From Candidatus Pseudothioglobus aerophilus (GTDB taxonomy: Bacteria > Pseudomonadota > Gammaproteobacteria > PS1 > Pseudothioglobaceae): 64,000 nucleotides of DNA. Under the pieces are notes generated by a model. The model made no database searches. It was not told the DNA's origin and saw only the letters and a program-made list of their open reading frames with translations. Location of the stretch: contig JACNFO010000039.1 of assembly GCA_014384565.1 (NCBI GenBank), positions 623 to 64,622 on the forward strand. The letters are read 5' to 3'. A program made the translations under genes and the position numbers. Positions 16,607 through 43,433 of this stretch are shown piece by piece (positions within the stretch are counted from its first letter, which is position 1; each line of letters starts with the position of its first letter).

Positions 16607-16893
16607 TTGCCTCTACCTATTCCTCTTGAGACGTCTTGAGCTAACTCAACATTAATAATCTCATGTGATAAAGTGTTTCTAGTGACAACTAGCCAAGACT
16701 GATCGCCCTGCTCGTGGTACCAGAGCTCACGATGATCACCAGCAACATTTTCTCTAATGTACTGGTATTGATAAAAATCTTCAGCGGATGCATCATGCTC
16801 CCAATTACTGGGGCGATTTATAAGGTCAGCTGCACCTAAGTAAACAAATTCTTCAGAATCACGAGGACCAAGTAACGGGTGATTAATTATCAT
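16603..16893 (-). CDS. soxD: Sarcosine oxidase / MGD delta subunit (SoxD/MgdB-like), cysteine-free
   Basis: Sits between the beta and alpha genes; GPR..EF.Y.G, RP, RENVAG..RELWYH, VTRNTLSHEI. Confidence 0.8.
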   Translation of the reverse strand: MIINHPLLGPRDSEEFVYLGAADLINRPSNWEHDASAEDFYQYQYIRENVAGDHRELWYHEQGDQSWLVVTRNTLSHEIINVELAQDVSRGIGRGK

Positions 16894-16904
16894 ATTATGT
16901 CCTC

Positions 16905-18171: not shown

Positions 18172-19518
18172 TTAGCTCCAAGGATACGGACTATTAGAAA
18201 CTGGATGAAGCTTGCCCGCTTTAAAGCGGCTAAACCTAAATGGCTCTAGGAGATCTTGTTTTTCACCTAGCAACTCTTCCGCTACCAAGCAGCCGACTCC
18301 TAACATTTTATATCCATGATTACTGTCTGCAATTATTGTTACATTTTCGTTATAAGTATCAATAACAGGAAAGCTGTCAGGAGTAAAGCAACCAATACCT
18401 CCAGATGGCTCTTTATGGTAATGAGGCATCATACCTTCGAACCTTTTATGGCAATGCGCAAGAGCAGATACCCACATTTCAGGGAAATCTTTACTTGCAG
18501 TAAATTCTTTACTTTCAGGGCCATATGGATCAATAGCAACATCATCTACAGGAGTATCTACTGTATATGGAGAAGCGCCGCCCTGTATTCCACCAAAACC
18601 CCAATCAGGTTTGTAATAAATACCCCATAATTGATCCGTAATTAATGATCCGTCAACAGTCGAATACAACGGAGCATCTGTGTCTACATGAAGTACTGGT
18701 GGAATTTTACCATCATTGGTTACTAAAGTTTCGGGTGGGATTTCTAAAACACCCTCCTCAAGCTGCCAAAAACGCCACATATCAATATCTTTATGAACTT
18801 CACCCTCAAGATCCTTTAATTCAATTTTAGACGGGAGTCCAAGCATATGCCAAAAATCACGAACCCAGGGGCCCGCTCCTATAATTAGGTTATCACATGC
18901 AATTGTTCCTTTATCTGTCTCAACCGCAGTAACTCTCTGGCCATCGCCTTCAGAAACAAAACCTGTAATCTCAGTTTCAAGAACAACAGTAACGCCTAAA
19001 TCCAATACCTTTTTAGAAAGACCTTCCATTGCTTTAACGTTGTTGGCATAGCCACCTGGTTTTTCATGAAGAACCGAAGTGATTCCTTCTGCTTGCCAAT
19101 CATCAAACATATTTAACATGTAATCACGCGACTCTTGCTCACCTTCAATAAAAACACTTTCATACCCAATTGCAGCTTGCTCAGTGTGAATTTGCTTAAC
19201 ATCTTCGCGCATTTTTTCACATGAAATTTGCATATAACCGTTTGCATGATAACTAAAAGCCTCTGGATCACTTTCCCAAATACTAACTGAATGCGCCATT
19301 AATTTTCGCATTGCAGGTTGAAAATAGTTATTACGGACAACACCACAAGCAATTCCAGTTGCTCCAGCTGCCACTCTATCTGATTTATCAATAATGACTA
19401 TTCGACCGTTAACGCTTTCACCATTTTCAGTTAATCGCTCAGCCAATCTCCATGCGGTTGACAATCCATGAATTCCTGCTCCGGCTATAACGTATTCCGC
19501 TTGACTCGGTAAAGACAT
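18172..19518 (-). CDS. FAD-dependent oxidoreductase, DAO/amine-demethylase superfamily, substrate unknown
   Basis: GAGIHGLSTAW Rossmann motif, GATGIACGVVRNNY, GAGPW, TPDSFP..D, DSNHGYK; ends 4 nt upstream of the soxB start. Confidence 0.8.
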   Translation of the reverse strand: MSLPSQAEYVIAGAGIHGLSTAWRLAERLTENGESVNGRIVIIDKSDRVAAGATGIACGVVRNNYFQPAMRKLMAHSVSIWESDPEAFSYHANGYMQISCEKMREDVKQIHTEQAAIGYESVFIEGEQESRDYMLNMFDDWQAEGITSVLHEKPGGYANNVKAMEGLSKKVLDLGVTVVLETEITGFVSEGDGQRVTAVETDKGTIACDNLIIGAGPWVRDFWHMLGLPSKIELKDLEGEVHKDIDMWRFWQLEEGVLEIPPETLVTNDGKIPPVLHVDTDAPLYSTVDGSLITDQLWGIYYKPDWGFGGIQGGASPYTVDTPVDDVAIDPYGPESKEFTASKDFPEMWVSALAHCHKRFEGMMPHYHKEPSGGIGCFTPDSFPVIDTYNENVTIIADSNHGYKMLGVGCLVAEELLGEKQDLLEPFRFSRFKAGKLHPVSNSPYPWS

Positions 19519-20905: not shown

Positions 20906-22066
20906 ATGTCAATTCCTCTTAGTAACTTAGACTCTGTTCTAACATCAACTGATAAAGCAAAAGGACTACCTAACGAGCACTACGTGAGCGAGGCTGTCTT
21001 TGACGAAGAAAAAAAAGCAATTTTGTTTGATAATTGGTCAGCAATTGGGACTGGCAGCGATATACCGAATCCGGGCGATATTAAGCCACTAAATTTTGTT
21101 GGAATGCCTTTAATGTTGGTTCGTAACTCCAATGGAGCTATTAATGTATTTCAAAATACTTGTCGACATAGAGGAATGATTTTAATTAATGAACCAACAA
21201 ACATAAAAGGAGTTATAAGCTGTCCATATCATAGCTGGTGTTACAGTCTTGATGGTGATTTATTTGCAACACCTATGGTTGGAGGCACGGATATAAATAC
21301 TCATGAGTCTATTAAAAATGAAGAGCTCAGTCTCTTTAAAATTCGATCTGCAGTCTGGCAAGACGTTATCTTTGTAAACATTTCTAACTCTGCAAAGGAG
21401 TTTACTGATTACGCTTCAAAAGCCATTGCGAGATGGTCTGAGTTTGAAAAACCCCTTTATCATGGAGGTGAAAGTTCTTCATTCAAACTCAATTTAGATA
21501 CTAACTGGAAGCTAGCAGTTGAAAACTACTGTGAAAGCTACCATCTACCTTGGGTCCACCCAGAACTTAATGTTACTTCCAGTATAGAAGATCACTATCA
21601 TATTGAGGAGAAGGGTCATTTCTCTGGGCAAGGCTCTCATGTCTATAATCAAATGAAAAGTTCTGGTGGCAACGTATTTCCAGATTTTGAAGATTTATCA
21701 GATGAATGGGACACTAAAAGTGAGTATATCGCCTTGTATCCAAATGTACTTTTAGGAGTACATAGAGATCACTTTTATTCAATAATTATAGAGCCAATCT
21801 CTACAAATAAAACAATTGAGCATGTCTCACTATACTATGCAAAAGAGCCTTCTGAAATGCCAGAACTGAAAACACTTTTAAACTCTAACGCTTCTTTTTG
21901 GAAAACTGTCTTTAGTGAAGATATTGGCGTTGTAGAGGGAATGCAGCGCGGGAGGAGCGGCTTAATGTTTGATGGCGGAAAATTCTCACCAGTAATGGAC
22001 AGCGCTACTCACTGCTTTCATCAGTGGGTTGCCAAACTTTTAAAAGACTTTAGGGCAAAGCAGTAA
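20906..22066 (+). CDS. Rieske non-heme iron oxygenase alpha subunit, choline monooxygenase/GbcA/CntA-like group
   Basis: Rieske motif CRHRG...CPYHSW; iron site ENYCESYHLPWVHP with bridging Glu; EDIGVVEGMQRG. Confidence 0.85.
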   Translation: MSIPLSNLDSVLTSTDKAKGLPNEHYVSEAVFDEEKKAILFDNWSAIGTGSDIPNPGDIKPLNFVGMPLMLVRNSNGAINVFQNTCRHRGMILINEPTNIKGVISCPYHSWCYSLDGDLFATPMVGGTDINTHESIKNEELSLFKIRSAVWQDVIFVNISNSAKEFTDYASKAIARWSEFEKPLYHGGESSSFKLNLDTNWKLAVENYCESYHLPWVHPELNVTSSIEDHYHIEEKGHFSGQGSHVYNQMKSSGGNVFPDFEDLSDEWDTKSEYIALYPNVLLGVHRDHFYSIIIEPISTNKTIEHVSLYYAKEPSEMPELKTLLNSNASFWKTVFSEDIGVVEGMQRGRSGLMFDGGKFSPVMDSATHCFHQWVAKLLKDFRAKQ

Positions 22067-23028: not shown

Positions 23029-25473
23029 CTAGTCAATTCCTAGTAACTTTCTTCTCTTCGTTGCCCAGGTCTGGATTAAATGATCCACTGCAAGACCGAT
23101 AAACGCCACGCATAAACCAAGCATTAGACCAGTTCCAATATTGCCTCCAGAAAAAAGTTGTTGCATTATTTCTTGGCCTAAATCTGTAGTACCAATAAAC
23201 GCACCTATAATAACCATAAACAATGCAAAAATAACGCACTGATTGACGCCCAGCATAATATGTGGGAAAGCTAATGGGAACTCGATTTTAACCATACGCT
23301 GAAGTTTTGTTGCGCCCGACATATCTCCCGCTTCAAGCAAAGATTCTGGTACATTTCTCAGGCCTTCTACGGTGTAGCGAGTAGGCGGAATAACAGCGTA
23401 GACAATGACCGCAATTAACACTGAAGTGTCAGTCACACCAAAGAGCATAATCACCGGAATAAGATAAATGAACGACGGAAAAGTTTGAAAAGTGTCACAA
23501 ACCAAAAGAATGAATTTGGTTGCCCTCTTATTTTGCACACAGATTGCACCAACAATCGTACCAATAATAACAGAAACAATGACTGCAAACGTCAGCATAT
23601 ACATAGTTATCAAGGCTCTTTCCCACCAGGGTGTTAGAGCAATAAACAACATAAACAAACCAATTACAATCGCAGAACGAATGCCACCGATAATGTAACC
23701 AACACCCATTGTTAGAACAAAAGTTGCTATTGCTGGCATGGCCAGATAAGACGCTTTCATTGGCATCAACACTTCCACCAGTAACCACTTGTTAAATATT
23801 TTAATATCCGCTCTCCAATTTGAAACCATGTAGTCAACGCCTGCCTGCCAAAATGGCTCAGTGGTAATACCTTTGTTGTGGGGTATCGTGTGAAAATAGT
23901 TAATACCTTTTGCAGTATCAGCAAACATCCAGTTACCAAACCAAGCAAACAAAAGAGCGGCAAAGAAAACTGCAACAAACAAAAGAGCTGTTTTATTTCT
24001 ATCAACAAAAGAAAGGTCAGCAAAGTAGTCGGTTTGCTTATTGGCCCAAGCTAAAGATAATTTATCTAACACTACAGCAATCAGGACAATACATACTCCT
24101 AATTCTAGCGCTTGACCTACCCTTAGTTGGTTTAGAGCGAGTAATAAGTTAAAACCCAGGCCCTTAGCTCCAATAAAAGAAGCAATCACTACCATAGCCA
24201 AGCACTGCATAATTACCTGGTTGACGCCAATTAAAATGTCGCGCCTTGCAGTAGGTATCAAAACTTTAAACATCAGTTGATAATTATGGCAACCACTCAT
24301 CATGCCTGCATCTAAAACCTCTGGAGAGACTCTTTTGAGACCTAGCAAGGTGAGTCGAATCATCGGAGGTGTTGCAAAAATTATTGTTGCAATCGCACCC
24401 GCATGGTCACCAATACCAAAGAACACAATTACTGGTACCAAATACGCGAAATGTGGAAACGTTTGTGCAACGAGGAGCAATGGCGTTATTACTCTCTCAA
24501 CCGTTCTACTCTTGTAGGCAAGCACAGCCCAGATAACACCTAATAAAACAGAGACTGGTGCAGCAACCAACACCAAAGAGAGTGTCTGCATTGCGGGTTC
24601 CCATTGGCCGAATACAGCCAAGTAAATACAACTGAAACCAGCCAATATAGAAAGACCCACACCTTTAAGTTTATAACCCAAAATAAAAGCACCGGCAGTT
24701 AATACTGTCCAAGGAATAGCAGGGACACTGGAGTACCACTTATCCTTATTTTCAGCGAGCCAATCCCAGCCGGATTGATCACTAAAAACATTGGCAAGTG
24801 AAACGACTGTCTCAAAACCACCAATCAATAATTCCCGAATTAAAGTAATTAAAAACAATAAAGTGGCGCCAATAGCTCGGGTAAATAATCGAACTCGACC
24901 ATAGTCTTCATAGTCTTCAATTTCTGGGTCGTAAACTGGTGTCACCCAAAATTCGAATATGAGGTACTGAGAAAAATCTTGCAACATTGATGGTAATTCC
25001 CAAAACGTACTTCTTGTCACCTCACCAAAAAACCAGTTATACAAAGTAGGTATAAACAGAAGTCCCACAATAATACCAACAAAGCCCTTGCTAATAATTT
25101 GAAACCAATTGAAACTTAACCACTGTGATTTATTGACGCTCTCTGCAAAGCTTTTGTATAAGAGCCCAGCAGTTACCAATAAAGCTATTAGAACATAGGT
25201 GGCGGAAGTGTTAATGACAGGGTGATAAAAAGTCAGCTCAGGAATTCTAACGAGTTGAGGAGGAAGTTGCCAATTCAGAATCATTGACATGGATTCAGCA
25301 AAACCAGCCGAAGATTGTATTTCTCCCTTAACAACAGACTTGGCAAATAAATGACGCTCTACTATCAAATCATGGTATTGCCCTGTCATTGACATGAGAA
25401 TAAAAAACACAATGAGGACAATGCCCAATTGCGTCAGTTTAGGGCGTTCAGATAAATAATTGATAAAGTTCAT
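23029..25473 (-). CDS. tmoV: ABC transporter permease with two fused ProW-type modules (TmoV-like)
   Basis: Two copies of QTFP.F.YL.P / EAA-like loop / GAKGLG-GTTDLG; downstream of tmoW and tmoX. Confidence 0.75.
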   Translation of the reverse strand: MNFINYLSERPKLTQLGIVLIVFFILMSMTGQYHDLIVERHLFAKSVVKGEIQSSAGFAESMSMILNWQLPPQLVRIPELTFYHPVINTSATYVLIALLVTAGLLYKSFAESVNKSQWLSFNWFQIISKGFVGIIVGLLFIPTLYNWFFGEVTRSTFWELPSMLQDFSQYLIFEFWVTPVYDPEIEDYEDYGRVRLFTRAIGATLLFLITLIRELLIGGFETVVSLANVFSDQSGWDWLAENKDKWYSSVPAIPWTVLTAGAFILGYKLKGVGLSILAGFSCIYLAVFGQWEPAMQTLSLVLVAAPVSVLLGVIWAVLAYKSRTVERVITPLLLVAQTFPHFAYLVPVIVFFGIGDHAGAIATIIFATPPMIRLTLLGLKRVSPEVLDAGMMSGCHNYQLMFKVLIPTARRDILIGVNQVIMQCLAMVVIASFIGAKGLGFNLLLALNQLRVGQALELGVCIVLIAVVLDKLSLAWANKQTDYFADLSFVDRNKTALLFVAVFFAALLFAWFGNWMFADTAKGINYFHTIPHNKGITTEPFWQAGVDYMVSNWRADIKIFNKWLLVEVLMPMKASYLAMPAIATFVLTMGVGYIIGGIRSAIVIGLFMLFIALTPWWERALITMYMLTFAVIVSVIIGTIVGAICVQNKRATKFILLVCDTFQTFPSFIYLIPVIMLFGVTDTSVLIAVIVYAVIPPTRYTVEGLRNVPESLLEAGDMSGATKLQRMVKIEFPLAFPHIMLGVNQCVIFALFMVIIGAFIGTTDLGQEIMQQLFSGGNIGTGLMLGLCVAFIGLAVDHLIQTWATKRRKLLGID

Positions 25474-25483
25474 GGTGCTAGCC

Positions 25484-26533
25484 TTAAGCGTTGCTTTCTA
25501 GTGTTGAATTTTCACCAAATAACACATGAATTACTTTAGATGAATGAACAACACCAACAATATCATCATTTGCATTGAGTACGGGAACTGATTTAGGGTC
25601 GCCGAGCACAGCTTCGGCAACAGTTTCAATAATGGCATCTTCGGAGACCCTTAAATCACTAAAGTCTGTTTCATCGCCAACAGGCTCCATCACTGATTTA
25701 ATTTTAAGAACCTTCTCCCTTGGAACATCCTCTGTAAACTTGCGAACGTATTCTGTTGCTGGATTAAGAACTATATTTGCAGGTGTATCCAATTGCTCGA
25801 TAATGCCATCTTTCATGATTGCAATCCGATCGGCAAGCCTTAGTGCTTCATCAAAGTCATGAGTAACGAAAAGAATCGTCTTATTTAGGACACCCTGAAG
25901 CCTTAGAAACTCATCTTGCATCTCTTTACGAATTAACGGATCTAATGCTGAGAAGGGCTCATCCAAGAACCAAATATCGGGTTCAACAGCTAGAGAGCGT
26001 GCGATTCCAACTCGTTGCTGCTGACCACCAGAGAGTTGTCTTGGGAAATAATTCTCACGACCAGTTAAGCCAACAAGGTCAACCATGTCTTTGGCTCTTT
26101 GCATGCTGTCTTTTGTGCTATTGCCTTTCACTTGCAATGGAAACGCTATATTCTCTAATACGGTTTTATGGGGTAATAATGCAAAACTCTGAAACACCAT
26201 GCCCATCTTGTTGCGACGAAGTTCTATCAACTCCTTATCACTCATTGAGGTTAAATCTTCACCCTCAATATAAATATTCCCTGCAGTGGCATCGGTTAGT
26301 CTTGAAATACAACGAAGCAAGGTCGACTTGCCCGAGCCTGAAAGACCCATAACCACAAGCATCTCACCCTTATTAACCTCGAAAGAGGCATTATTAACTC
26401 CGACTACACAGCCAGCTTTTTGAAATTCTTCAGCAACAACCTTGCCATTTGCATTTTTAAGCATTTTTTCGGCATTTTTGCCAAATATTTTATAAACGGA
26501 ATCGCATTTAATTACAGGTTGCTGATCAGACAT
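25484..26533 (-). CDS. tmoW: ProV-type ABC ATPase (TmoW-like)
   Basis: GLSGSGKSTL, LSGGQQQRVG, DEPFSALDPLIR, VTHD. Confidence 0.8.
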   Translation of the reverse strand: MSDQQPVIKCDSVYKIFGKNAEKMLKNANGKVVAEEFQKAGCVVGVNNASFEVNKGEMLVVMGLSGSGKSTLLRCISRLTDATAGNIYIEGEDLTSMSDKELIELRRNKMGMVFQSFALLPHKTVLENIAFPLQVKGNSTKDSMQRAKDMVDLVGLTGRENYFPRQLSGGQQQRVGIARSLAVEPDIWFLDEPFSALDPLIRKEMQDEFLRLQGVLNKTILFVTHDFDEALRLADRIAIMKDGIIEQLDTPANIVLNPATEYVRKFTEDVPREKVLKIKSVMEPVGDETDFSDLRVSEDAIIETVAEAVLGDPKSVPVLNANDDIVGVVHSSKVIHVLFGENSTLESNA

Positions 26534-26581
26534 AATATCTTCCTAAATTCTTTGAAACAAATAACACACTACCAGTATATA

Positions 26582-26626
26582 TAAAAATACCCCTACCCCC
26601 TCATAATAAATTTGAGGGCAAGGGTA
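26582..26626 (-). terminator. Intrinsic terminator-like hairpin between tmoX and tmoW
   Basis: Minus strand TACCCTTGCCCTCA...TGAGGGGGTAGGGGTA followed by TTTTT. Confidence 0.6.
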
Positions 26627-26679
26627 CTTAACAAACACCCCTTATTCTATTTGAATGAAGAGTGCTCTAGATTAAAGGG

Positions 26680-27636
26680 TTATTTGGTGAAAGCCATCCA
26701 AACATCCTCGTTATCCGCAAGCCACTTAGCTGCAGCATCCTCATGAGACATCTTATCAATATCAACTAGAGCAGCCATCTGACCGATCATGCCAGTCGTG
26801 AAGTCTATCTTAGTGTATGCCTTATACGCCATTGGATGAGTCTTAGGGAACTTATAGTTCGCCGCTTTCTTCAACCAACCTCTAGGAGATCCACAAGCCC
26901 CGTCACCACCTTCTGTTTCACGGCAACCAAAGAAGTATGGAGGAAACTCTATGAAGTAAAAACCATCACTATCCGTAAAGTTAGGTGTCCAGTTAAATAT
27001 AATTATGCCTTCTCCAGCAGCTTCTGCAGAATCAATAGCGGCCCAAAGGGCGTCTGCACTACCAGTTTGTTTATAAGTATATTCATCATCTAAACCAAGA
27101 GCTCCAATACGATCTTCAAATAGATTCTTTCCGGTTTCAGCATCAACATGCCAAGGACCGTCTAAGAAAACACCTTTACCACCAGAATCGGCAGTGGCAA
27201 AAACTGATCCACAACCTTTAAGAGCCTCCCAATTTGGAAGTCCAGGACATAGATTTTTCTCTATTACGAAGTTAGGAACGCCCATATCTTCAATAGTCAA
27301 GGCAGAATGGGTACCAGCTTCTATTAGACCGCCCTTCTCCATGGCTGTATAGTAAGCGTTGCCAAAGGCTCCTTCCCAAACTTCGTGAGATATAGTAACG
27401 TCTCCAAGACGAATCGATTCATATACACCTGACGAGTCAGCAGGAACGTAAGATACGTTGTTACCCATAGACTCAAAAATACCACCAATAACGTAGGACA
27501 TAACCACTTGGCTTGACCAGTTGTGAATTGGTATAACGATTGGCTTTGAAGAGTCAGCTGCAAGAGCTTGACCCGATACAGAAGCTAAAGTCATCGTTAA
27601 AGCAGCAGCAGCTACTTTACTTGTAAACTTATTCAT
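26680..27636 (-). CDS. tmoX: TMAO-binding periplasmic protein (TmoX-like)
   Basis: Signal peptide; DSSKPIVIPIHNWSSQ, VYESIRLGDV, HEVWE, LCPGLP, ADALWA, FNWTPNF. These match TmoX proteins as I recall them; lies next to tdm. Confidence 0.8.
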   Translation of the reverse strand: MNKFTSKVAAAALTMTLASVSGQALAADSSKPIVIPIHNWSSQVVMSYVIGGIFESMGNNVSYVPADSSGVYESIRLGDVTISHEVWEGAFGNAYYTAMEKGGLIEAGTHSALTIEDMGVPNFVIEKNLCPGLPNWEALKGCGSVFATADSGGKGVFLDGPWHVDAETGKNLFEDRIGALGLDDEYTYKQTGSADALWAAIDSAEAAGEGIIIFNWTPNFTDSDGFYFIEFPPYFFGCRETEGGDGACGSPRGWLKKAANYKFPKTHPMAYKAYTKIDFTTGMIGQMAALVDIDKMSHEDAAAKWLADNEDVWMAFTK

Positions 27637-27800: not shown

Positions 27801-30101
27801 CTACATTCTTACTCGAGTTTTTTCAGGATCATAAAATGGAAAGCGGACCACCTTTGCAGATAAACGCTTATGGTGTCCATCGAGCTTTCCTACTTCAACT
27901 TCATTATCAATCTCTGACGCTGAAACTGAAATTCGACATAATGCAATGTTCTTTTTAAGTATCGGCGAACGTGTTGCACTTGTAATAATTCCAACTTGTT
28001 GTTTTCCAATATACACCCCATCACCATGGAGCGCAACTTCATTAGAATCTAATTCTAACCCAACTAGAACTCTTTGTGGAGAATTCTTCCGAAGAATTAA
28101 TGATTCCTTACCAGAAAAATCTTCCTCTTTTGTTTTCAATGGAACCGTAAACGCAATGCCTGCTTCAAATGGGTCCGTTTGATCACAGAACTCATAACCG
28201 GCAAAAATTAAACCTGCCTCAATTCTTAGCATATCAAGAGCATTCAATCCTAATGGACATATACCAAACTCTTCTCCAGCCTCTGCAATAGCATCCCAAA
28301 CGGCTTCACAATCATTAGGGTGTGCAAACACTTCATAACCTAGCTCACCAGAATATCCAGTCCTAGAAACCATCACAGGTATTCCAAACTCGCCGCCAAT
28401 TCTACCAATGGTAAAACGGAACCACTTAAGATCCTCAAGACTCGTTTGGAGTTTTGGCGTCCAGATAATTTTCTCTAAAGTTTCGCGGCTCTTTGGACCC
28501 TGAACAGCAACGTTGTGAAGCTGGTCTGTTGAAGACTTAACACGGACATCAAACCCTTTTTCATTTGCAATTTTTCGAAGCAGTTTCCCGCCATCATCCG
28601 AGCCACCAATCCATCTAAAATTATTTTCATCAAGACGGAAAAGCGTTCCATCATCAACCATACATCCATTGTCATAGCACATTGCAGAATAGACAACCTG
28701 GCCAATCGCAAGCTTTCTAACATCTTTGGTAATAGCATATTGCATTAATGCTTCAGCATCTTGACCGTAAACTTCAAACTTTCTAAGAGGTGCAAGGTCA
28801 ATCATTGCTACCCCTTCACGGCACTGCCAATATTCTTTAATTGCACCTAAATTATCGTATTCAAGTGGAAGCCAATAGCCATTATAGTTATCAAAGTTTT
28901 TAGTTAGCTTAGAGGTATTTTTATGAAAACCAGTTTCTTTAGTCATAGTTGGTATTGATTGTGGATCAGGCCTAAAAGCCGTAGCCGATGAGAAATTATT
29001 GGATTTATTATAAATTCTAACGTGAATGTCTGTTGGATTCCAGCCATTAGAAGAGGTCGTATCATCTGGACAAGCTGATGAAACGCATACCAGGTCATCA
29101 ACAGCTCTAAATAATACATAGTCACCAGGTCTAGACCAAGAAACATCTGAGCTTAATGAATGACACTCTTCAATAGCAGTATTAAAAAAGAGATTAACAG
29201 CTGCCCAATTTTGTCTTGGAGTAACCCCGTATTTAGAAAGAGATTTATTGAAATTATCAGTACAACTAATATGTCCAGGGAATCCCCTATCATCATAATA
29301 TTTGGCGTTGCATGCAAGGCCAAAGGTGTCATGTCTACACACAGTGTCTTGTATTACTTCTACTAGTGGCACTGAATTTTGGTTGTAGAACTTATCGTGA
29401 GTCCCTGGCGCTGGGTAACTTGCCAGCATCTGCGACCTTGTCACTGTTGGATCAAGGCAAAGCTCTAGATTATTTTTTAAATCTTCTTCTAAAAATGCTT
29501 GAAAATCTGAGCATTGCTGGCCCTCAACATCAATAATTTGAATATATTCACCGGCCTTTACTTTATAGGCAACCGCAGAGCTATTATTTATCCGAATCTC
29601 TTTAGATGTTTTGGCAAGGGGCTCAGGAAGTCTCTCAGAGGGGTTTGATGGATTTGAGCGAGATACATTAATTAAAATCTCTGTAGGAGAATTTTGTTTA
29701 TCTACTATCATTGGCCCACCTTTTGCATCAAATACACATAAGGCATCATTTTTAATATTAAAAGATTGACGAGAATCAGCAGGGTTTGATGCTGAAAAAA
29801 GCTCCGTACCATTTAGTTCTTTTGAATCAATTTGGTTGTGTTTTATAATTGCCTTAAACATATCCGAACAATCATCTACACTTATTTCAGATGCATTACT
29901 TTTAGGTTTTGAATTCCAGCTTAAAGTTGATAATACTGATAATTTTTCAGCATTAAAAGCAAGAACACTGCACTGTTGATCTCCCTCTACATCGACTATC
30001 TCTACTGAATCGCCACTCTTTAAGTCAATTGAAATTGCCTCACCACCAAGAAGTTGGTAGGTTTCACAATCGCCATCATATTTAATATTAGAAACTCTCA
30101 T
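27801..30101 (-). CDS. tdm: Trimethylamine N-oxide demethylase (DUF1989 + GcvT-like domain)
   Basis: QQCSDF, RHDTFGLAC..YY...GFPGHISC.DNF, WSRPGDYVL, SSACPDD metal motifs; C-terminal aminomethyltransferase domain (DDGT, RTGYSGELGYE). Confidence 0.87.
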   Translation of the reverse strand: MRVSNIKYDGDCETYQLLGGEAISIDLKSGDSVEIVDVEGDQQCSVLAFNAEKLSVLSTLSWNSKPKSNASEISVDDCSDMFKAIIKHNQIDSKELNGTELFSASNPADSRQSFNIKNDALCVFDAKGGPMIVDKQNSPTEILINVSRSNPSNPSERLPEPLAKTSKEIRINNSSAVAYKVKAGEYIQIIDVEGQQCSDFQAFLEEDLKNNLELCLDPTVTRSQMLASYPAPGTHDKFYNQNSVPLVEVIQDTVCRHDTFGLACNAKYYDDRGFPGHISCTDNFNKSLSKYGVTPRQNWAAVNLFFNTAIEECHSLSSDVSWSRPGDYVLFRAVDDLVCVSSACPDDTTSSNGWNPTDIHVRIYNKSNNFSSATAFRPDPQSIPTMTKETGFHKNTSKLTKNFDNYNGYWLPLEYDNLGAIKEYWQCREGVAMIDLAPLRKFEVYGQDAEALMQYAITKDVRKLAIGQVVYSAMCYDNGCMVDDGTLFRLDENNFRWIGGSDDGGKLLRKIANEKGFDVRVKSSTDQLHNVAVQGPKSRETLEKIIWTPKLQTSLEDLKWFRFTIGRIGGEFGIPVMVSRTGYSGELGYEVFAHPNDCEAVWDAIAEAGEEFGICPLGLNALDMLRIEAGLIFAGYEFCDQTDPFEAGIAFTVPLKTKEEDFSGKESLILRKNSPQRVLVGLELDSNEVALHGDGVYIGKQQVGIITSATRSPILKKNIALCRISVSASEIDNEVEVGKLDGHHKRLSAKVVRFPFYDPEKTRVRM

Positions 30102-30305: not shown

Positions 30306-30692
30306 TTAGAATTTACGGTAAGCGTTATTAAGGTCAACCATTGGGTGGTTTTCTGACATTTGAAACTTAACTAATAATTCACGAGCAATCATATCTCGCT
30401 CTTGCTGGTTATTTGGAAGTTTTATATTGTCCGGAATAGTGACCCAACCATTAATATTTCTATCAAAAACAGCAGCTTGATCGCCCTCATAACCCATATG
30501 AATATCTTCTAACCAGTTAAGATCTTTCCAGCCCATTTTTTCAATATATTTTTGTAAAAAAGGCGTTATAAACTTAAGATCAGGAACAAGGTTTACATCA
30601 TATCTATAACCGATATGTTGTCCAATCATTTGCTCGCGATCGGTATCTAAGCCATCAGCACCAACTACAAATGTTTCTTCATTTTTACTCAT
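30306..30692 (-). CDS. Hypothetical 128-aa protein, last gene of the GS-like/mgs operon
   Basis: GGAG RBS; starts 14 nt after the mgsC stop; protein-like composition; no motif I recognise. Confidence 0.75.
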   Translation of the reverse strand: MSKNEETFVVGADGLDTDREQMIGQHIGYRYDVNLVPDLKFITPFLQKYIEKMGWKDLNWLEDIHMGYEGDQAAVFDRNINGWVTIPDNIKLPNNQQERDMIARELLVKFQMSENHPMVDLNNAYRKF

Positions 30693-30706: not shown

Positions 30707-32041
30707 TTAAAAACGTGTCATATCAGGACGACCAACCGTGTGCTGTGAACCTGCAATAGGAACTTGTGCACAAGCTGAAGCCTCCATAGTAAGAGCAGCT
30801 AGATCTTCTGGCTCTAATGAGTGTATATTTGTCTTACCACAGGCACGAGCCATCATTTGAGTCTCGATTGCTAGTGTATGTAAGAAGTTGTATACACGCT
30901 CTGATGCTTCATCCGGATCCAGACGCTTTCTAAGTTCAGGATCTTGAGTTGCAACACCAACCGGGCAGCGCCCAGTATGACAGTGGTAACATTCACCGGC
31001 TTTAACGCCCATTTCAGCTTCATAATTAGCTTCAGGAATATCTCTATTACAGTTAAGCGCCATAAGCGATGAGTGGCCAATCGCAACTGCGTCAGCACCA
31101 AGTGCAACGGCTTTAGCTACGTCACCACCATTTCGAATACCACCCGCATAAACTAAAGAAATTCTGCCGCTCATCCCAACATCATCAATCGCCCTTCGAG
31201 CTTGACGAATTGCTGCAATTCCTGGTACTCCAGTTTCTTCTGTCGCAATATGTGGTCCAGCAGCAGTGCCGCCTTCCATTCCATCAATATAAATACTATC
31301 ACAACCAGTCTTAGCGGCCATACGTACATCATCGTATACACGCGCTGCACCAAGTTTAAGCTGAATTGGAATCTGACCATCTGTCGCTTCACGAATCTCT
31401 TCAATCTTTAGCGCCAAGTCATCTGGTCCAAGCCAGTCTGGATGTCTCGCAGGAGATCGCTGATCAATACCGGCAGGTAAAGAACGCATTTCAGCAACCT
31501 GGTCTGTAACTTTTTGGCCCATTAGGTGTCCACCTAAACCAACCTTACAGCCTTGACCAATAAAAAATTCAACACTATCCGCTAAACGTAAATGTTGTGG
31601 GTTAAAGCCATAACGCGACTGAATACACTGGTAGAACCACTTACTTGAGTAGCGTCTCTCATCTGGAATCATTCCGCCCTCACCTGAACAGGTGGCAGTT
31701 CCGGCCATCGTAGCACCGCGAGCTAGAGCTGTTTTAGCCTCATAACTCAATGCACCAAAGCTCATTCCAGTAATGTAAATTGGAATGTCCAGCTCTAATG
31801 GTCTTGGAGCCTCTGGCCCAATAATTGTCTTAGTTAAGCATTTTTCTCTATAACCCTCAATAACAAAACGAGTTAACGTTCCAGGCATGAAAGTCAAGTC
31901 ATCCCATGTTGGAATTTTTTTAAATAGAGAGAAACCTCTCATTCTGTATCTACCCAAATCAGACTTGATGTGAATATCATCCATCACCGCTTTAGGGAAG
32001 ATAAAACTTTTTCCTAGTCTATGGTTTTCTGAATCACTCAT
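30707..32041 (-). CDS. mgsC: N-methylglutamate synthase FMN/Fe-S subunit (MgsC/GlxD-like)
   Basis: GMSFGALS, GEGGM, IGQG.K.G.GG.L.GQKV, RHPDW.GPDDL, GGIRNGGDVAKA, CYHCHTGRCPVG Fe-S motif. Confidence 0.8.
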   Translation of the reverse strand: MSDSENHRLGKSFIFPKAVMDDIHIKSDLGRYRMRGFSLFKKIPTWDDLTFMPGTLTRFVIEGYREKCLTKTIIGPEAPRPLELDIPIYITGMSFGALSYEAKTALARGATMAGTATCSGEGGMIPDERRYSSKWFYQCIQSRYGFNPQHLRLADSVEFFIGQGCKVGLGGHLMGQKVTDQVAEMRSLPAGIDQRSPARHPDWLGPDDLALKIEEIREATDGQIPIQLKLGAARVYDDVRMAAKTGCDSIYIDGMEGGTAAGPHIATEETGVPGIAAIRQARRAIDDVGMSGRISLVYAGGIRNGGDVAKAVALGADAVAIGHSSLMALNCNRDIPEANYEAEMGVKAGECYHCHTGRCPVGVATQDPELRKRLDPDEASERVYNFLHTLAIETQMMARACGKTNIHSLEPEDLAALTMEASACAQVPIAGSQHTVGRPDMTRF

Positions 32042-32076: not shown

Positions 32077-32919
32077 TTAAAGAATTAGTTTCTTTTCATT
32101 AGGCTCTAAGTTAGCGTAGTTCCATAACATTTTTCCAGAAACATGCTTTTGCATTTTCTCAACGCCTCTAGGAGTCTTCATACCATAAAGGGCCAATTTC
32201 TCTGTTAGGTAACGAACATCAAGCTCTGTCATATCAGCCTGCACGCAGTCAACACCAAGCTCTTCAACCTCACCGCCAACATAAATAGTGCCGTCATACA
32301 TAGAGTCACCTAAGTTCATTCCAGCATCACCTAAAACAATCATACGACCACGCTGCATCATGAATCCAGAAAATGCACCTGTCTTACCGCCGACAATAAT
32401 TGTGCCGCCCTTCTGATCAATACCAGTACGAGCGCCAACACTGCCTTTACAGACAAGATCACCGCCACGAATAGCAGCGCCAAAAGTAGAACCAGCATTT
32501 TTGTCAATGACAACAGTACCCGCCATCATGTTTTCTGCACACGACCAACCGACACGACCTTTAATATGGACATTAGGTCCATCAATTAAGCCGCAACCAA
32601 AGTAACCTAAACTATCTGAGAAAGTTAAGTTAAGTCTGTTTAAGATGCCAACGCCAACTCCATGCCTAGACATAGGGTTATCAACAGTAATATCACCAAT
32701 ACCTTTTTCCATTAGCTCTCTGATTTCACGATTAATCTCTCTTGGCGTCATGTCAAGTGCGTCAATCGTTGCACTCTTAGAAGTGTCAACATCAAATGAG
32801 TGGAAATATGTTAAATTTTCACTTTCGTCAATAGAGAAGAATTTTTTCTGCGTTCTTCCTTTTAACTGCTCGTCGTGAAGTCCCATCTCCTGGGACGTTT
32901 CCTTCCTTAGTTCTGCCAT
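32077..32919 (-). CDS. mgsB: N-methylglutamate synthase GXGXG subunit (MgsB/GlxC-like), with about 50 aa N-terminal extension
   Basis: GltB-C/FwdC beta-helix repeats (AENMMAG, GARTGI..KGG, GDAG..LGDSMY). Confidence 0.8.
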   Translation of the reverse strand: MAELRKETSQEMGLHDEQLKGRTQKKFFSIDESENLTYFHSFDVDTSKSATIDALDMTPREINREIRELMEKGIGDITVDNPMSRHGVGVGILNRLNLTFSDSLGYFGCGLIDGPNVHIKGRVGWSCAENMMAGTVVIDKNAGSTFGAAIRGGDLVCKGSVGARTGIDQKGGTIIVGGKTGAFSGFMMQRGRMIVLGDAGMNLGDSMYDGTIYVGGEVEELGVDCVQADMTELDVRYLTEKLALYGMKTPRGVEKMQKHVSGKMLWNYANLEPNEKKLIL

Positions 32920-33845
32920 ACTTTTACCTCTCCGTGATAGGGGTCAAATGTCTCAATACGATGGTCAAATAAAGTTCTAATTGCAACCTCTTCAGAAGCT
33001 AGTGCAATCATATCTTCACCTTCGTATACAACCATTGGTTTTGCAGCCATAACATCCTTGGCCATACCAAGTTGATCTTTAGTTGCAACCAAATATGTGA
33101 AAACGCCATCAAGGTAATCTATTGAACCTTTCATAGCAGTTTCTAAATCGTCACCTTGGCTCATTCTATCGGCAAGATAAACGGCAATAAGTTCTGAGTC
33201 GCAGTTCGATGAAAAACGGTGGCCAGAGCGCTCAAGTGATCGTCTATTTGTCCAATAGTTTGTAAGCTGCCCGTTATGAACTACTGCAACGTCACTAAAG
33301 GGATATGCCCAGTAAGGGTGTGCCGAGCGAATATCTACGTCAGACTCGGTCGCCATCCTGGTATGTCCAATTCCGTGAGTGCCATTAAAGTCATTTAAGC
33401 CGTACTGATCAGAAACTACCGATGCATCTCCTAAGTCTTTAACTAACTCAAGTGAGTTACCGATAGATAAAATTTCAACGCCTTCAACATCTTCAACAAA
33501 GTCGGCAACTTTTTTCATGTCACCTGAAAACTCTACCTCATAACGATGGGCATACTCAGTTGGGCTCTCTTTCTTTACAACCTTAACACCTAACTCAGTA
33601 AGTCTTGAGTTGACTGTCTCCAAGCGATCTTTGATAGTCGCATGGATATCATAGCTTCCTTCTAGATCAGCAGCCTCAGCAACCTTAAATCTTAATATTT
33701 GATTTCCATTGTCTTTGCCGTACATTGCATATCCAGTTGAGTCTGGACCTCTATGCTTTAAAGCCTGTAGCATTGAAGTCATCTGCTGACCAATGTTTAC
33801 GCCTTTTCCAGCTTTTTTATGAATAATTCCTGCTATTCCGCACAT
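32907..33845 (-). CDS. mgsA: N-methylglutamate synthase class II amidotransferase subunit (MgsA/GlxB-like)
   Basis: N-terminal MCGIAG nucleophile, HRGPDS, GHTRMAT, HNGQLTN, DSE. Confidence 0.8.
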   Translation of the reverse strand: MCGIAGIIHKKAGKGVNIGQQMTSMLQALKHRGPDSTGYAMYGKDNGNQILRFKVAEAADLEGSYDIHATIKDRLETVNSRLTELGVKVVKKESPTEYAHRYEVEFSGDMKKVADFVEDVEGVEILSIGNSLELVKDLGDASVVSDQYGLNDFNGTHGIGHTRMATESDVDIRSAHPYWAYPFSDVAVVHNGQLTNYWTNRRSLERSGHRFSSNCDSELIAVYLADRMSQGDDLETAMKGSIDYLDGVFTYLVATKDQLGMAKDVMAAKPMVVYEGEDMIALASEEVAIRTLFDHRIETFDPYHGEVKVWQN

Positions 33846-33919: not shown

Positions 33920-35395
33920 CTATGGCAAGCAATCTATGTAAGTCTCTAAATCCCAATCTGTAACTGTGGCATTAAATTTTTCCCATTCATCCGTCTTATA
34001 ATGATGAAAAACTTTGTACATCTCATTTGGCATCGATGATTTAATTACGTCATCATTTTCTAGCTCATTTAATGCCTCACCTAAGGACATAGGAAGCTTC
34101 TTGACTTGCTTTCCTGCCTCCATCGCTGCATAGATATTACGCTCTTCAGGCTCACCGGCATCAAGGTTATTATCAATACCGTCACCCATCGCCTTTAACA
34201 GCGCTGATCCCATTAAGTAAGGGTTAACCATTGAGTCCACAGAGCGGTATTCAAAACGGCCTGGCGCAGAAACGCGAAGTGCACAAGTACGGTTTTGATA
34301 ACCCCAGTCTGCAAAAATTGGCGCCCAAAAGCCAGTATCCCAAAGACGGCGATACGAGTTCACAGTAGAAGAGCCGATTGAAGTTAGTGCGGGTAGATGC
34401 TTAATAACGCCGCCAATTGACTGAAGTCCAATTGGACCAGGCATCTTTTCATCGATTGAAGGGTCCGGCATAAATGTGTTCTTGCCGCCCTCTTTATACA
34501 TAAAGTTACCAGGCATTCCTGGAAGCTCTCCATCACCAGCAATTTCTGGATGGAATACGTCTTTGCCGCCTTCCCATAATGACATATTATGGTGACAACC
34601 TGATGCAGATACTCCCATAAAAGGCTTACTCATAAAGCATGCAATTAAACCAAACTCACGAGCAACTTGCGCACAAATTTGTCGATAAGTCGTCAATCGG
34701 TCTGCATTTCTTAATACATCGTCAAACTGAGTATTAAGCTCTAATTGACCCGGGGCATCTTCGTGGTCACCTTGAATAATATCAAGACCCATCTGCTCTG
34801 AATACTCTATAACTTTCATAAAGACAGGACGCAACTCTTCAAACTGGTCAATGTGATAGCAGTTTGGCTTTGTTACTCCGCCGTTTGGCTGACCATCTTC
34901 ACCGCGCTTTAGCCACATCATTTCTGGCTCCGTGCCGCATCTCATATCTAACCCATACTGGTCTTGGAATTCTTTGTGTTGTCTGTATAAGTTGCCACGA
35001 CAATCTGACGTTAACGCTTCGCCTGGATTTTCACGTTCTTCACGGTTCCTGTAAAGTCTACAAAAAACGCGCGCTACTCTCTTATCCCATGGAAGCTGAC
35101 AAAAAGTCTCAGGATCTGGAATACCTACAAGCTCTGAAGATTCAGGGCCGTAACCAATATAGTCACCGTGACGGTCTACAAATAAGTTGGCTGTTGAGCC
35201 GTATACTAGTTGAAATCCTTTTTCAGCTAATCTCTCCCAGTGGCGGGCAGGAATACCTTTACCTACAATGCGCCCTGTAACTGAAACAAATTGATAATAT
35301 ACATATGTAACGCCCAATGCTTCGATTTTAGCCTTGACTTCTTTTACAAGTTTGTCGCGTCCGGGCTCGTTAACGTGTTGTTCTAAATCTGTCAT
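33920..35395 (-). CDS. gmaS: Glutamine synthetase-family protein, probable gamma-glutamyl-(methyl)amide synthetase (GmaS-like, divergent)
   Basis: GTEPE, HEDAPGQLE, FMSKPF, GCHHNMS, NSYRRL, NRTCALR, FEYR, NPYL. Function inferred from position before mgsABC. Confidence 0.7.
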   Translation of the reverse strand: MTDLEQHVNEPGRDKLVKEVKAKIEALGVTYVYYQFVSVTGRIVGKGIPARHWERLAEKGFQLVYGSTANLFVDRHGDYIGYGPESSELVGIPDPETFCQLPWDKRVARVFCRLYRNREERENPGEALTSDCRGNLYRQHKEFQDQYGLDMRCGTEPEMMWLKRGEDGQPNGGVTKPNCYHIDQFEELRPVFMKVIEYSEQMGLDIIQGDHEDAPGQLELNTQFDDVLRNADRLTTYRQICAQVAREFGLIACFMSKPFMGVSASGCHHNMSLWEGGKDVFHPEIAGDGELPGMPGNFMYKEGGKNTFMPDPSIDEKMPGPIGLQSIGGVIKHLPALTSIGSSTVNSYRRLWDTGFWAPIFADWGYQNRTCALRVSAPGRFEYRSVDSMVNPYLMGSALLKAMGDGIDNNLDAGEPEERNIYAAMEAGKQVKKLPMSLGEALNELENDDVIKSSMPNEMYKVFHHYKTDEWEKFNATVTDWDLETYIDCLP

Positions 35396-35776: not shown

Positions 35777-36427
35777 CTAATCCGAATTATTTGAGCAGAT
35801 AACGGTTAGAAACTGGCACTCATCACTGATGATTTTTTTAGGGCCATGTGGCTTATCAGAATCAAAGTATATCGAGTCACCCTTCTGGAAGTGATATATC
35901 TTGGTACCGTAGTAATAATCCATTTCACCTTTGAGCATATAAATAAACTCAACCCCTTTATGCTGAAAGTCAGGAAAATCATAATCTCTTGAAGTTACCG
36001 TAATAAGGCAGGGCTCTACTTTAAGAGAGCCGCTCACGTTGTGACCGAGTAATTGGTAGTGCCTACTTTCATCGGAGCCCGCCCTCTCTATTGTCAAACC
36101 ATTACCTGATTTAATAAAGGTTGGCTCTACGTCTTTATCATGCTGTTTAAATAGTGACGTAATTGAAATATTAAGGGCGTGACAAATCAACTGAATTGTT
36201 TTTAAGGAGGCGCTAATTTGACCATTCTCAATTTTTGAGAGCATGCTTGCAGATAATAGTGATTGCTTTGAGAGTTGCTGCAAAGTAACGCCAGCACTTT
36301 TTCGAGAAATTCTGACTTGCTTTCCAATCGAGGCCTCTAGCTGTTTATCCGTGCCAAAACTGGGAAGATTTTTGTTAACTATGGATACGCTTTGTTCTAT
36401 TTGCGCAGTATTTATAATTGAAGACAT
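35777..36427 (-). CDS. XRE-family HTH + cupin transcriptional regulator
   Basis: TLQQLSKQSLLSASMLSKIENGQISASL HTH; cupin FQHKGVEFIYMLKGE...GDSIYFDSDKPH. Confidence 0.87.
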   Translation of the reverse strand: MSSIINTAQIEQSVSIVNKNLPSFGTDKQLEASIGKQVRISRKSAGVTLQQLSKQSLLSASMLSKIENGQISASLKTIQLICHALNISITSLFKQHDKDVEPTFIKSGNGLTIERAGSDESRHYQLLGHNVSGSLKVEPCLITVTSRDYDFPDFQHKGVEFIYMLKGEMDYYYGTKIYHFQKGDSIYFDSDKPHGPKKIISDECQFLTVICSNNSD

Positions 36428-42023: not shown

Positions 42024-43433
42024 TTATTTAGAATCAGATGCAGAGCTAACCATTGACTCAGGATAAGCCTGAGCAGGAACCTTGACTGCGTCAAGACCTT
42101 TGATTTGAACGTCATCTGGGATACGTAGCATTCCAGCTTTGTGGACCAACCAAGATACAATGTACCCTGGAACGAAGCCAAGCAAGAACATTACTACAGC
42201 GCCAACAATTTGGCCATATAAGCTTATTGCAACTGTACCTTCTGGAGCGAATGCACCAAGCCCTGGAACGCCAGAACCGAATACACCAAGAACAACAACA
42301 CCAAACAGGCCAATTGTTCCGTGGACCGTAACAGCGCCAACAGCATCATCGATACCTAAACCTTCTACCCAGTCTGCACATGGTTTTAAAATCATGCCCG
42401 CAACAAGTGAAATAATGATTACGTGTGAGCCAAAGTAAACATCAAGTCCAGAGGCGACTGAGATAATACCTGCTAGACAGCCAGACATCATCCAGAAAGG
42501 GTCTTTAGTAAATACCCATGCACCGATAATACCACCAGCAGCAGCCAAAGTTACGTTAAACGCAAGCGCTGAAAGTGTTATTGGCGTTCCATAAATGGTT
42601 GTACCTTGATCCGCATACCAACTCCAACCTTCACCAGGCAGAATGATACATGCCATTAGGAAGCCGAAGAAACCAACAATAATTAGCATCAAGCCAGTTA
42701 CTGTAAGCGGTAAGTTGTGGCCCGGAATTTTATTCGCAGAACCGTCAGCGTTGAATTTTCCCACACGAGGACCTAGATTAACTAGAATACCTAGAGCGAA
42801 GAATCCAGCAACCGCGTGAACCAATCCAGCCGCACCAAAGTCATGAAAACCGAACTCTGTTACTAACCAACCATCGGCATGCCAGCCCCAAGCGGCAGCT
42901 ACAACCCAGGCAAAAGAGCCGAGGACAATCGCACAGATTACCCAACCTACGGTTTGTATTCTCTCGATTAGCGCGCCGGAAGCAATAGACGCAGTCGTTG
43001 CAGCAAACAGAGCGAAAGCTCCCCAGAATACACCTGACGCACGGTCAGCCATATTTGGACCCATGTACTGGGCTGAATCGCCCCATGGTAATGCAATCGC
43101 ATTGGCATACGCCAAACCTGAAATTTCCATGTACCCGGCACCTGCTGCCAGGGACGTAACTGGAAACGTTGGCAAGGCCCAATAGAACCACCAACCAAAC
43201 AGATAAAACGTTACGATTGTAAACGCAAACGCGAGTAAGTTTTTAATTCCTGACGACAGTACATTTGCCACACGAGTTTGGCCCATCTCATAGAGAAGGA
43301 AACCAGCATGAATAAGAACCATCAAAGGAATTGTTATGTAATAGTACGCTTCAGCAAACATGGTGTTTGTGACCTGAGCCGCACTTTTGACAGCAGCTAT
43401 CTCTGCCGTTAAAGCTAAGATTTGATCTTCCAA
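42024..43433 (-). CDS. amt: Amt/Mep-family ammonium or methylammonium channel
   Basis: HAGFLLYEMG, ASGALIER, HDFGAAGLVH, GPRVGKF, GIDDAVGAVTVHG (twin His). TTG start after AAGGAGA. Confidence 0.9.
   Translation of the reverse strand: MEDQILALTAEIAAVKSAAQVTNTMFAEAYYYITIPLMVLIHAGFLLYEMGQTRVANVLSSGIKNLLAFAFTIVTFYLFGWWFYWALPTFPVTSLAAGAGYMEISGLAYANAIALPWGDSAQYMGPNMADRASGVFWGAFALFAATTASIASGALIERIQTVGWVICAIVLGSFAWVVAAAWGWHADGWLVTEFGFHDFGAAGLVHAVAGFFALGILVNLGPRVGKFNADGSANKIPGHNLPLTVTGLMLIIVGFFGFLMACIILPGEGWSWYADQGTTIYGTPITLSALAFNVTLAAAGGIIGAWVFTKDPFWMMSGCLAGIISVASGLDVYFGSHVIIISLVAGMILKPCADWVEGLGIDDAVGAVTVHGTIGLFGVVVLGVFGSGVPGLGAFAPEGTVAISLYGQIVGAVVMFLLGFVPGYIVSWLVHKAGMLRIPDDVQIKGLDAVKVPAQAYPESMVSSASDSK

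Follow-up and report, generated by a model that had tools for sequence, protein, structure and literature searches.

A conserved five-gene module headed by a GmaS-like ligase in a SUP05-type marine bacterium, and its possible link to dimethylamine

Methylated amines form a large pool of marine nitrogen and one-carbon (C1) compounds and are precursors of aerosols. Ligases resembling glutamine synthetase (GS) are known for putrescine, isopropylamine and ethanolamine (PuuA, IpuC and GlnA4). The closest described enzyme to the one considered here is GmaS (EC 6.3.4.12), a GS-fold ligase specific for monomethylamine (MMA), for which crystal structures exist from Rhodovulum sp. 12E13 (RhGmaS, 7cql) and Methylovorus mays (MmGmaS, 9qur); its operon partner is an MgsABC-type complex and its gene is sited in methylated-amine islands. 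Dimethylamine (DMA), which the trimethylamine N-oxide (TMAO) demethylase Tdm produces, is removed in Ruegeria pomeroyi and Methylocella silvestris by DmmDABC, a haem/FeS/flavin monooxygenase (PF11927, PF22289/90, Fer2). SAR11 and abundant marine Gamma- and Deltaproteobacteria possess Tdm and gmaS and lack dmmDABC (PMC5520151). SAR11 oxidises MMA (PMC3160333), and strain HTCC1062 grows with TMAO as its only nitrogen source without dmmDABC, for which its authors proposed an unknown Dmm isoenzyme (PMC8918994). This study concerns a stretch of 64,000 nucleotides (the window) from Candidatus Pseudothioglobus aerophilus (contig JACNFO010000039.1, positions 623 to 64,622), about 39% GC and part of a genome of 1.47 Mb that is 91% complete. 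The element in question is the GS-family ligase encoded at 33920-35395 on the minus strand from an ATG start (491 aa), here called GS*. The counterparts of MgsABC that are encoded with it are called MgsA*, MgsB* and MgsC*, and the 128-aa protein that follows them is called p128.

In the initial annotation GS* was described as a GS-family protein of 491 aa with intact catalytic motifs, and both the open reading frame (ORF) and the mapping of its residues on RhGmaS agree with this. GS* scored 276 bits against Pfam PF00120 (Gln-synt_C), enough for domain membership, and 24 bits against the beta-grasp N domain PF03951, which is under the gathering score. Its best NCBIfam match was TIGR03105 (GmaS, 'type III glutamate--ammonia ligase') at 308.1 bits, below the cut-off of 469.6, and it also fell short of the models for GlnA (TIGR00653, 259.9 bits; cut-off 429) and PuuA (NF045547, 217 bits; cut-off 650). 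A TIGR03105 search of 301 Pseudomonadota genomes, 34 of which had the gene, supplied the canonical GmaS reference set; these proteins scored 565-692 bits on the model and all other proteins 459 or less. Identity between GS* and canonical GmaS is 26-31%, and the crystallised enzymes were matched at 165 bits (RhGmaS) and 183 bits (MmGmaS), while the best sequence scores in the PDB were to archaeal and Firmicute GSI-alpha, from methanogens and Bacillus. An AF2 model of GS* (pLDDT 93.7) gave TM values of 0.8-0.9 to GS and GmaS structures, and its top Foldseek match was the Methylovorus mays GmaS structure, virtually tied with archaeal GSI-alpha. A look-up in the ESM Atlas returned generic GS clusters only, and NCBI names the proteins of this clade only 'glutamine synthetase family protein'. 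Proteins of SUP05 single-cell genomes and Candidatus Pseudothioglobus singularis match GS* at 96-98% identity.

The methylamine pocket of RhGmaS is made up of K30', Y147, Q175, D177, E179, E186 and N188 (PMC7948447). When this numbering was carried over through a canonical homologue that matches RhGmaS at 613 bits, all seven residues were found in GS* (K46, Y180, Q208, D210, E212, E219 and N221, in the same order). The residues for catalysis and for binding ATP, glutamate and Mg were likewise present (E156, E158, E212, E219, H268, S272, R350, R369, R374, E382 and R384), including the equivalents of the catalytic Arg312, Asp177 and Glu186 of RhGmaS, with R369 corresponding to R312. Conservation, gene order and neighbours were surveyed in the 80 best loci of GS* relatives. 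The seven pocket residues and the three catalytic residues are conserved in all 80 clade members, and the flap site, which is Glu327 in GlnA, is Trp in all 80 and in 26/26 canonical GmaS. In the seven pocket columns E. coli GlnA reads V, F, A, H, E, E and A, its flap residue is Glu, and in PuuA the Gln/Asp pair is replaced by Gly and Val. Relative to GmaS, Y174 is replaced by I, G231 by A and H237 by N throughout the clade (80/80), W189 is replaced by T in GS* and in 61/79 other clade members and is retained in 14, and the flap of GS* is 5 residues shorter. The pocket alone is no reason to expect another amine. Given the intact ligands, the GmaS-type pocket and the GmaS-like model, GS* very probably works like a GmaS, and its sequence shows it to be an ATP-dependent glutamate–amine ligase of GS fold whose catalytic apparatus is complete and whose amine pocket is of GmaS type.

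Outside the pocket GS* departs from GmaS in several ways. Its N-terminus had been said not to resemble that of GlnT-type GmaS, and the comparison bears this out: the canonical set carries the N-terminus described there for GmaS (...DLFGxQRAKLVP...GAGFAGFA), whereas the N domain of GS* reads ...VTGRIVGKGIP...GFQLVYGSTANL and has a longer, different loop (residues 60-83, GFQLVYGSTANL...DRHGDYIGYG; 35147-35218, minus strand) with about 11 extra residues (DRHGDYIGYG). In the alignment this loop stands where GmaS has GAGFAGFA and GlnA has the Asp50' loop, and the column of GlnA D50' is Val in the GS* clade and Ala in canonical GmaS. The insertion reported near EGGKNTFMPDP was confirmed by HMMER, which leaves residues 287-324 unaligned, and by alignment. 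It comprises about 25 residues (approximately 279-303; 34487-34561, minus strand), lies directly after the ATP-binding strand H268-S272 and just ahead of GGKNTFMPDP, and is predicted by AF2 to form short beta-hairpins with a pLDDT of about 79-95. It is kept within the clade; among the aligned rows it was seen in the tight clade and P0121 alone, and not in canonical GmaS, GlnA, PuuA or the nearest sister groups.

The phylogeny agrees with the proposal that GS* belongs to a divergent clade. The trees (FastTree, then quick and careful IQ-TREE runs under LG+G4 with 67-75 rows) included the window protein, named clade members, full-length representatives of 50% clusters, canonical GmaS, GlnA and PuuA from E. 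coli, and the two paralogues (GlnA and PuuA-like) encoded by the genome itself; fragmentary or compositionally odd rows (P0132, P0152, P0166, P0179, P0180, P0187, P0227, P0229, P0234, P0245, P0260, P0267 and P0268) some redundant canonical and clade rows, and one row for the divergent GS of G200, which spans two loci, were left out. In IQ-TREE the deeply branching GS* clade had 100/99 support inside a superclade of 22 rows at 100/100, and the canonical group, one member of which matches RhGmaS at 613 bits and MmGmaS at 371 bits, formed its own 100/100 clade. All three trees agree on this separation, which places GS* outside the group that holds the Rhodovulum-type and Methylovorus-type GmaS and thus not inside the characterised GmaS clade. 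The quick IQ-TREE run set the superclade beside the GmaS group with an SH-aLRT of only 82. E. coli PuuA and the PuuA-like protein of the genome fell in a different clade from GS*. Other representatives of the superclade are also unclassified by NCBIfam, and all are under the TIGR03105 cut-off.

GS* had also been placed 'in the gmaS position'. This did not hold, because the gene heads a paralogous five-gene module that in other genomes adjoins a canonical mgsABC-gmaS set. In the window the module runs from GS* through MgsA* (32907-33845, 312 aa, a class II amidotransferase subunit with an intact N-terminal Cys), MgsB* (32077-32919, 280 aa, a GXGXG subunit) and MgsC* (30707-32041, 444 aa, an FMN subunit of glutamate-synthase type) to p128 (30306-30692, with no Pfam or NCBIfam match), all on the minus strand. 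The order GS–MgsA–MgsB–MgsC–p128 was found in 59/59 of the surveyed loci long enough to show it, and these come from Gammaproteobacteria, SAR324, Alphaproteobacteria and Acidimicrobiia; in the canonical sets examined the order is mgsABC-gmaS instead. Coupling of GS* to an mgsABC-like trio is thus constant, but the trio is paralogous and has a fifth gene. The divergence seen in the partners MgsA, MgsB and MgsC was borne out by identities to the canonical proteins of 29-32%, 34-36% and about 51%, respectively. The N-terminal extension of about 50 aa noted on MgsB measures 49 aa (32773-32919) relative to canonical MgsB of 226-227 aa, and it is also present in the divergent MgsB of another genome. 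These loci mark GS* as the head of a rigid five-gene module paralogous to gmaS-mgsABC, and no description of such a module was found in the papers searched. A Cys-rich motif of MgsC was considered as a discriminator between the two sets and was rejected, as most canonical MgsC carry it too.

The module and a complete canonical mgsABC-gmaS occur together, often side by side, in two further genomes (G200 and G012), in Arenicellales nBUS_45 (G402), in HIMB59 (1.41 Mb) and in a Candidatus Pelagibacter (1.3 Mb), and a TIGR03105-positive GmaS is encoded as well in four of the five complete module genomes that were searched for it. In the Candidatus Pelagibacter sp. the order is TmoWVX | Tdm–DAO–GS*–MgsA*B*C*–p128–Amt–mgsABC–gmaS, which places the module between Tdm and the canonical pathway, and the Arenicellales island combines canonical gmaS, Amt, Tdm, TmoXWV, FolD and the module. 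Streamlined genomes that keep both sets next to each other speak against redundancy between the two. GS* is accordingly neither a diverged gmaS nor its replacement. In the window's genome and in Njordibacter the divergent set is the only GmaS-like ligase.

The spread of the module is wide. A database search with GS* gave 3623 matches, the top 120 at 82% identity or more; it is present in more than 593 species genomes, and a single 90%-identity cluster, the one that holds the Pelagibacter protein, counts 4125 members. GS* identity is 75-98% across Gammaproteobacteria, SAR324, Alphaproteobacteria and an Acidimicrobiia metagenome-assembled genome (MAG), and MgsC* is 86-100% identical across clade loci. 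Among SUP05-type Gammaproteobacteria, SAR324, Arenicellales, the Acidimicrobiia MAG and a Parasphingorhabdus MAG, GS* is 83-84% and MgsC* 86-90% identical. Such identity across phyla far exceeds what vertical descent would leave, and suggests that the genes spread horizontally in recent times, are under very strong constraint or lie in some cases on mis-binned contigs. The p128 protein is 66-98% identical across phyla and follows MgsC* in all 59 informative loci; it behaves like an obligatory component of the module, putatively a fifth subunit or an accessory protein. Two individual islands show further features. In Arenicellales, a third Mgs-like set stands beside canonical gmaS (G402:C1:1691793-1697178), consisting of an MgsA 45% identical to MgsA*, a 652-aa protein, apparently a fusion, 40% identical to MgsC*, and an 844-aa MgsC-like protein. 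In G200 (C1, approximately 2891900-2901400), two ORFs of 387 and 101 aa together make up MgsC*, and all that is left of Tdm between the two modules is a pair of fragments of 136 and 160 aa, which suggests that part of that island is decaying.

The surroundings of the module connect it with TMAO. In the window, GS*, MgsA*, MgsB*, MgsC* and p128 form a co-directional row with Tdm, a TmoXVW-type importer and FolD. Tdm (27801-30101, minus strand) consists of DUF1989 and GcvT domains and scores 1107 bits on NF053776 (cut-off 1100), and the importer (23029-27636, minus strand), a betaine-family ABC system of TmoX/V/W type with a binding protein, an ATPase and a fused permease, is syntenic with Tdm in other carriers. 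Within 8 kb of the module, Tdm was present in 34/80 surveyed loci, a divergent Amt channel in 23/80 and a DAO-family flavoprotein in 19/80. In the window the Amt-family channel lies at 42024-43433 (minus strand), and it also occurs near the module in Pelagibacter, HIMB59, G200 and G402. The DAO flavoprotein directly precedes GS* in many other lineages and adjoins the module in G200, G012, G402, HIMB59 and Pelagibacter. In the window island the 448-aa DAO-family protein (Pfam DAO; 18172-19518, minus strand) is about 14 kb away, beside the genes for a SoxBDAG-family heterotetrameric oxidase/dehydrogenase (13096-18167, minus strand; TIGR01373 and TIGR01372 over their cut-offs), a candidate N-methylglutamate dehydrogenase, and an XRE-cupin regulator precedes GS* instead.

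The same connection is seen across genomes. An even sample of Pseudomonadota gave only 2 further module carriers, and the more informative sample was one of 401 alphaproteobacterial genomes, in which 38 had the module, 32 had Tdm and 43 had a DmmC-family gene, the last count being limited by the fact that PF11927 also covers demethylases other than DmmC. Tdm was present in 23 of the 38 module carriers and in 9 of the 363 other genomes. Among the 32 Tdm carriers, 22 had the module only, 6 had DmmC only, 1 had both and 3 had neither; two of these three genomes are incomplete, and another species of each genus has the module. Fisher's test of this near-exclusion gave p = 6e-4, a value that overstates the case as shared ancestry is uncorrected. 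The DmmA-like and DmmC-like domains (PF22290 and PF11927), both validated on a true dmmABC cluster, and canonical GmaS were not found in the window's genome, and PF22290 was not over its cut-off in 10 further module genomes; as a positive control, PF22290 matched the dmmABC cluster, which adjoins a canonical gmaS. PF11982 (DUF3483), tried as a Dmm domain, matched nowhere and was dropped.

The initial annotation held that the amine may differ from MMA. The pocket gives no sign of this; the case for another substrate comes from genome context rather than from the N-terminus or the insertion, and is unproven. The reading proposed here, to which about an even chance is given, is that GS* is the GmaS-like ligase of a paralogous pathway whose physiological amine would be DMA from the neighbouring Tdm, possibly along with MMA. 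GS* would phosphorylate the gamma-carboxyl of glutamate, and a small methylated amine, deprotonated by Asp210, would attack to give a gamma-glutamyl amide. The Ntn-Cys amidotransferase MgsA* would then free the amine inside the MgsB*C* complex, where it would be fixed onto a glutamate or 2-oxoglutarate skeleton to yield an N-methylated glutamate. Two flavoproteins, the DAO protein of 448 aa and the enzyme of SoxBDAG type, would then move the methyl groups to methylene-tetrahydrofolate, with FolD nearby. With DMA as substrate, GS* would form gamma-glutamyl-dimethylamide, the Mgs* complex would form N,N-dimethylated glutamate, and the flavoproteins would strip its methyl groups into the folate pool. 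In the SUP05-type genome of the window, which has Tdm, the module would stand in for the missing DmmABC. DmmDABC shares no homology with this ATP- and glutamate-dependent system, though the two may do the same job of removing DMA after Tdm, and they are complementary among Tdm carriers. More tentatively, the DAO flavoprotein, GS*, MgsA*B*C* and p128 could together be the missing Dmm-independent DMA route of SAR11, SUP05, SAR324 and many other marine bacteria.

Several points weigh against DMA as the substrate. The first-shell residues of the amine pocket are exactly those of MMA-specific GmaS, and none of them calls for a bulkier secondary amine; the differences around them are limited to the flanking changes Y174 to I and W189 to T and the loop of the neighbouring subunit. 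We know of no GS-family ligase for which a secondary amine has been shown to be a substrate, and the members of this clade are known from sequence alone. The co-occurrence counts are uncorrected for shared ancestry or ecology and come from one sample, and PF11927 is broader than DmmC. With the genome 91% complete, Dmm and canonical GmaS can be described only as not found in it. Finally, the Candidatus Pelagibacter genome in which the module was seen is a different one from that of HTCC1062.

The main rival is that GS* is an isofunctional second GmaS making gamma-glutamylmethylamide from MMA only, in a parallel N-methylglutamate pathway that differs in affinity or regulation, perhaps serving oligotrophs as a high-affinity route or splitting nitrogen and energy roles with the other set, with the DAO protein a simple N-methylglutamate oxidase. 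This is considered unlikely, though it deserves serious weight. In its favour, characterised GmaS has the same seven MMA-pocket residues, the same catalytic triad and the same Trp on the flap, the best NCBIfam match is to TIGR03105, and the quick tree sets the superclade beside GmaS; MMA oxidation by SAR11 and the standing of GS* as the sole GmaS-like ligase in the window's genome and Njordibacter fit it as well. However, two full MMA modules adjoining in streamlined genomes of 1.3-1.4 Mb would be an unusual redundancy, and a second GmaS leaves unexplained the tight link with Tdm, the near-exclusion with DmmC among Tdm carriers, the Dmm gap and the growth of SAR11 on TMAO nitrogen.

Another small amine is less probable still. 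Ethylamine, ethanolamine, hydroxylamine or a choline- or betaine-derived amine might be used if the Tdm link reflected no more than a shared 'methylated osmolyte island', which also carries genes for betaine-homocysteine methyltransferase (BHMT), a Rieske oxygenase and Sox-type proteins; the different and longer pocket-facing N-domain loop of the neighbouring subunit and the several amines for which GS-like ligases are generally known would be in keeping with such a role. The module resembles the PuuA/IpuC type of system in that there a GS-like ligase makes a gamma-glutamyl amide that a DAO-family flavoprotein later oxidises, and the module too has a DAO-family partner. It differs in its clade, in having the Gln/Asp pair and the flap Trp, a signature common to GmaS and not PuuA, and in its obligatory partner, which is an Mgs-type amidotransferase/FMN complex and not a set of PuuB/PuuC or PuuBCD type; the genome also has a separate PuuA-like gene beside PotF. 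The remaining idea, that GS* assimilates ammonium as a second, GlnT-like GS and supplies a split glutamate synthase, the two forming a GS-GOGAT pair, is very improbable. GS* does share with GlnA (type I GS) its fold, the expected dodecamer-type architecture and the phosphoryl-transfer machinery, its best PDB sequence matches are GSI-alpha enzymes, and the MgsABC* subunits are homologous to glutamate synthase domains. But the ammonium-site residues of GlnA are replaced in GS* (Asp50' by Val, Glu327 by Trp and the His210 equivalent by Asp), the host has a separate, normal GlnA over the TIGR00653 cut-off that GS* misses, and the module is accompanied by Tdm, the TMAO importer and genes of C1-folate metabolism.

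The expectation that standard gmaS markers could miss the gene proved correct. GS* falls well short of the TIGR03105 cut-off (308.1 against 469.6 bits). The gmaS primers are reportedly those of Wischer et al. 2015, and what we take to be the sequence of the forward primer matched exactly in 19/25 canonical loci, which serves as a check on it, in 0 clade loci, and nowhere in the window at up to 3 mismatches. BLAST E-values of GS* against canonical GmaS in small databases are about 1e-57 to 1e-63, so metagenome screens based on E-values may count it inconsistently. Even if GS* were a second GmaS, it would be missed by the curated GmaS model and the tested forward primer, and the capacity of SUP05-type, SAR324 and similar bacteria to use methylamines may therefore be counted too low or assigned wrongly. 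If DMA is a substrate of GS*, both the estimates of marine DMA turnover and the surveys based on gene markers would need revising, the 'metabolic bottleneck' that separates Tdm from the N-methylglutamate pathway would be closed, and the growth of Dmm-less SAR11 on TMAO nitrogen would be explained. GS* stands at the head of a sister gene set that is unstudied, strongly conserved and extremely abundant, and that is also present in SAR11, SUP05 and SAR324.

The rest of the island contains a few genes of possible relevance. Upstream of GS* are the XRE-HTH and cupin regulator (35777-36427, minus strand) and BHMT. The regulator shares 44-47% identity with those that neighbour the canonical mgsABC-gmaS of G200, G012 and Arenicellales nBUS_45, and the SUP05 lineage may have kept the regulator and bhmT of the canonical set after losing its other genes. 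A Rieske/ring-hydroxylating oxygenase alpha subunit (20906-22066, plus strand) adjoins a LysR regulator and matches the glycine-betaine monooxygenase GbcA weakly (111 bits; cut-off 670); it is another candidate N-demethylase in the island. Elsewhere in the genome, the PuuA-like third GS paralogue (G000:C6 1486-2844, minus strand) lies beside a PotF-type putrescine-binding protein and scores below all curated cut-offs.

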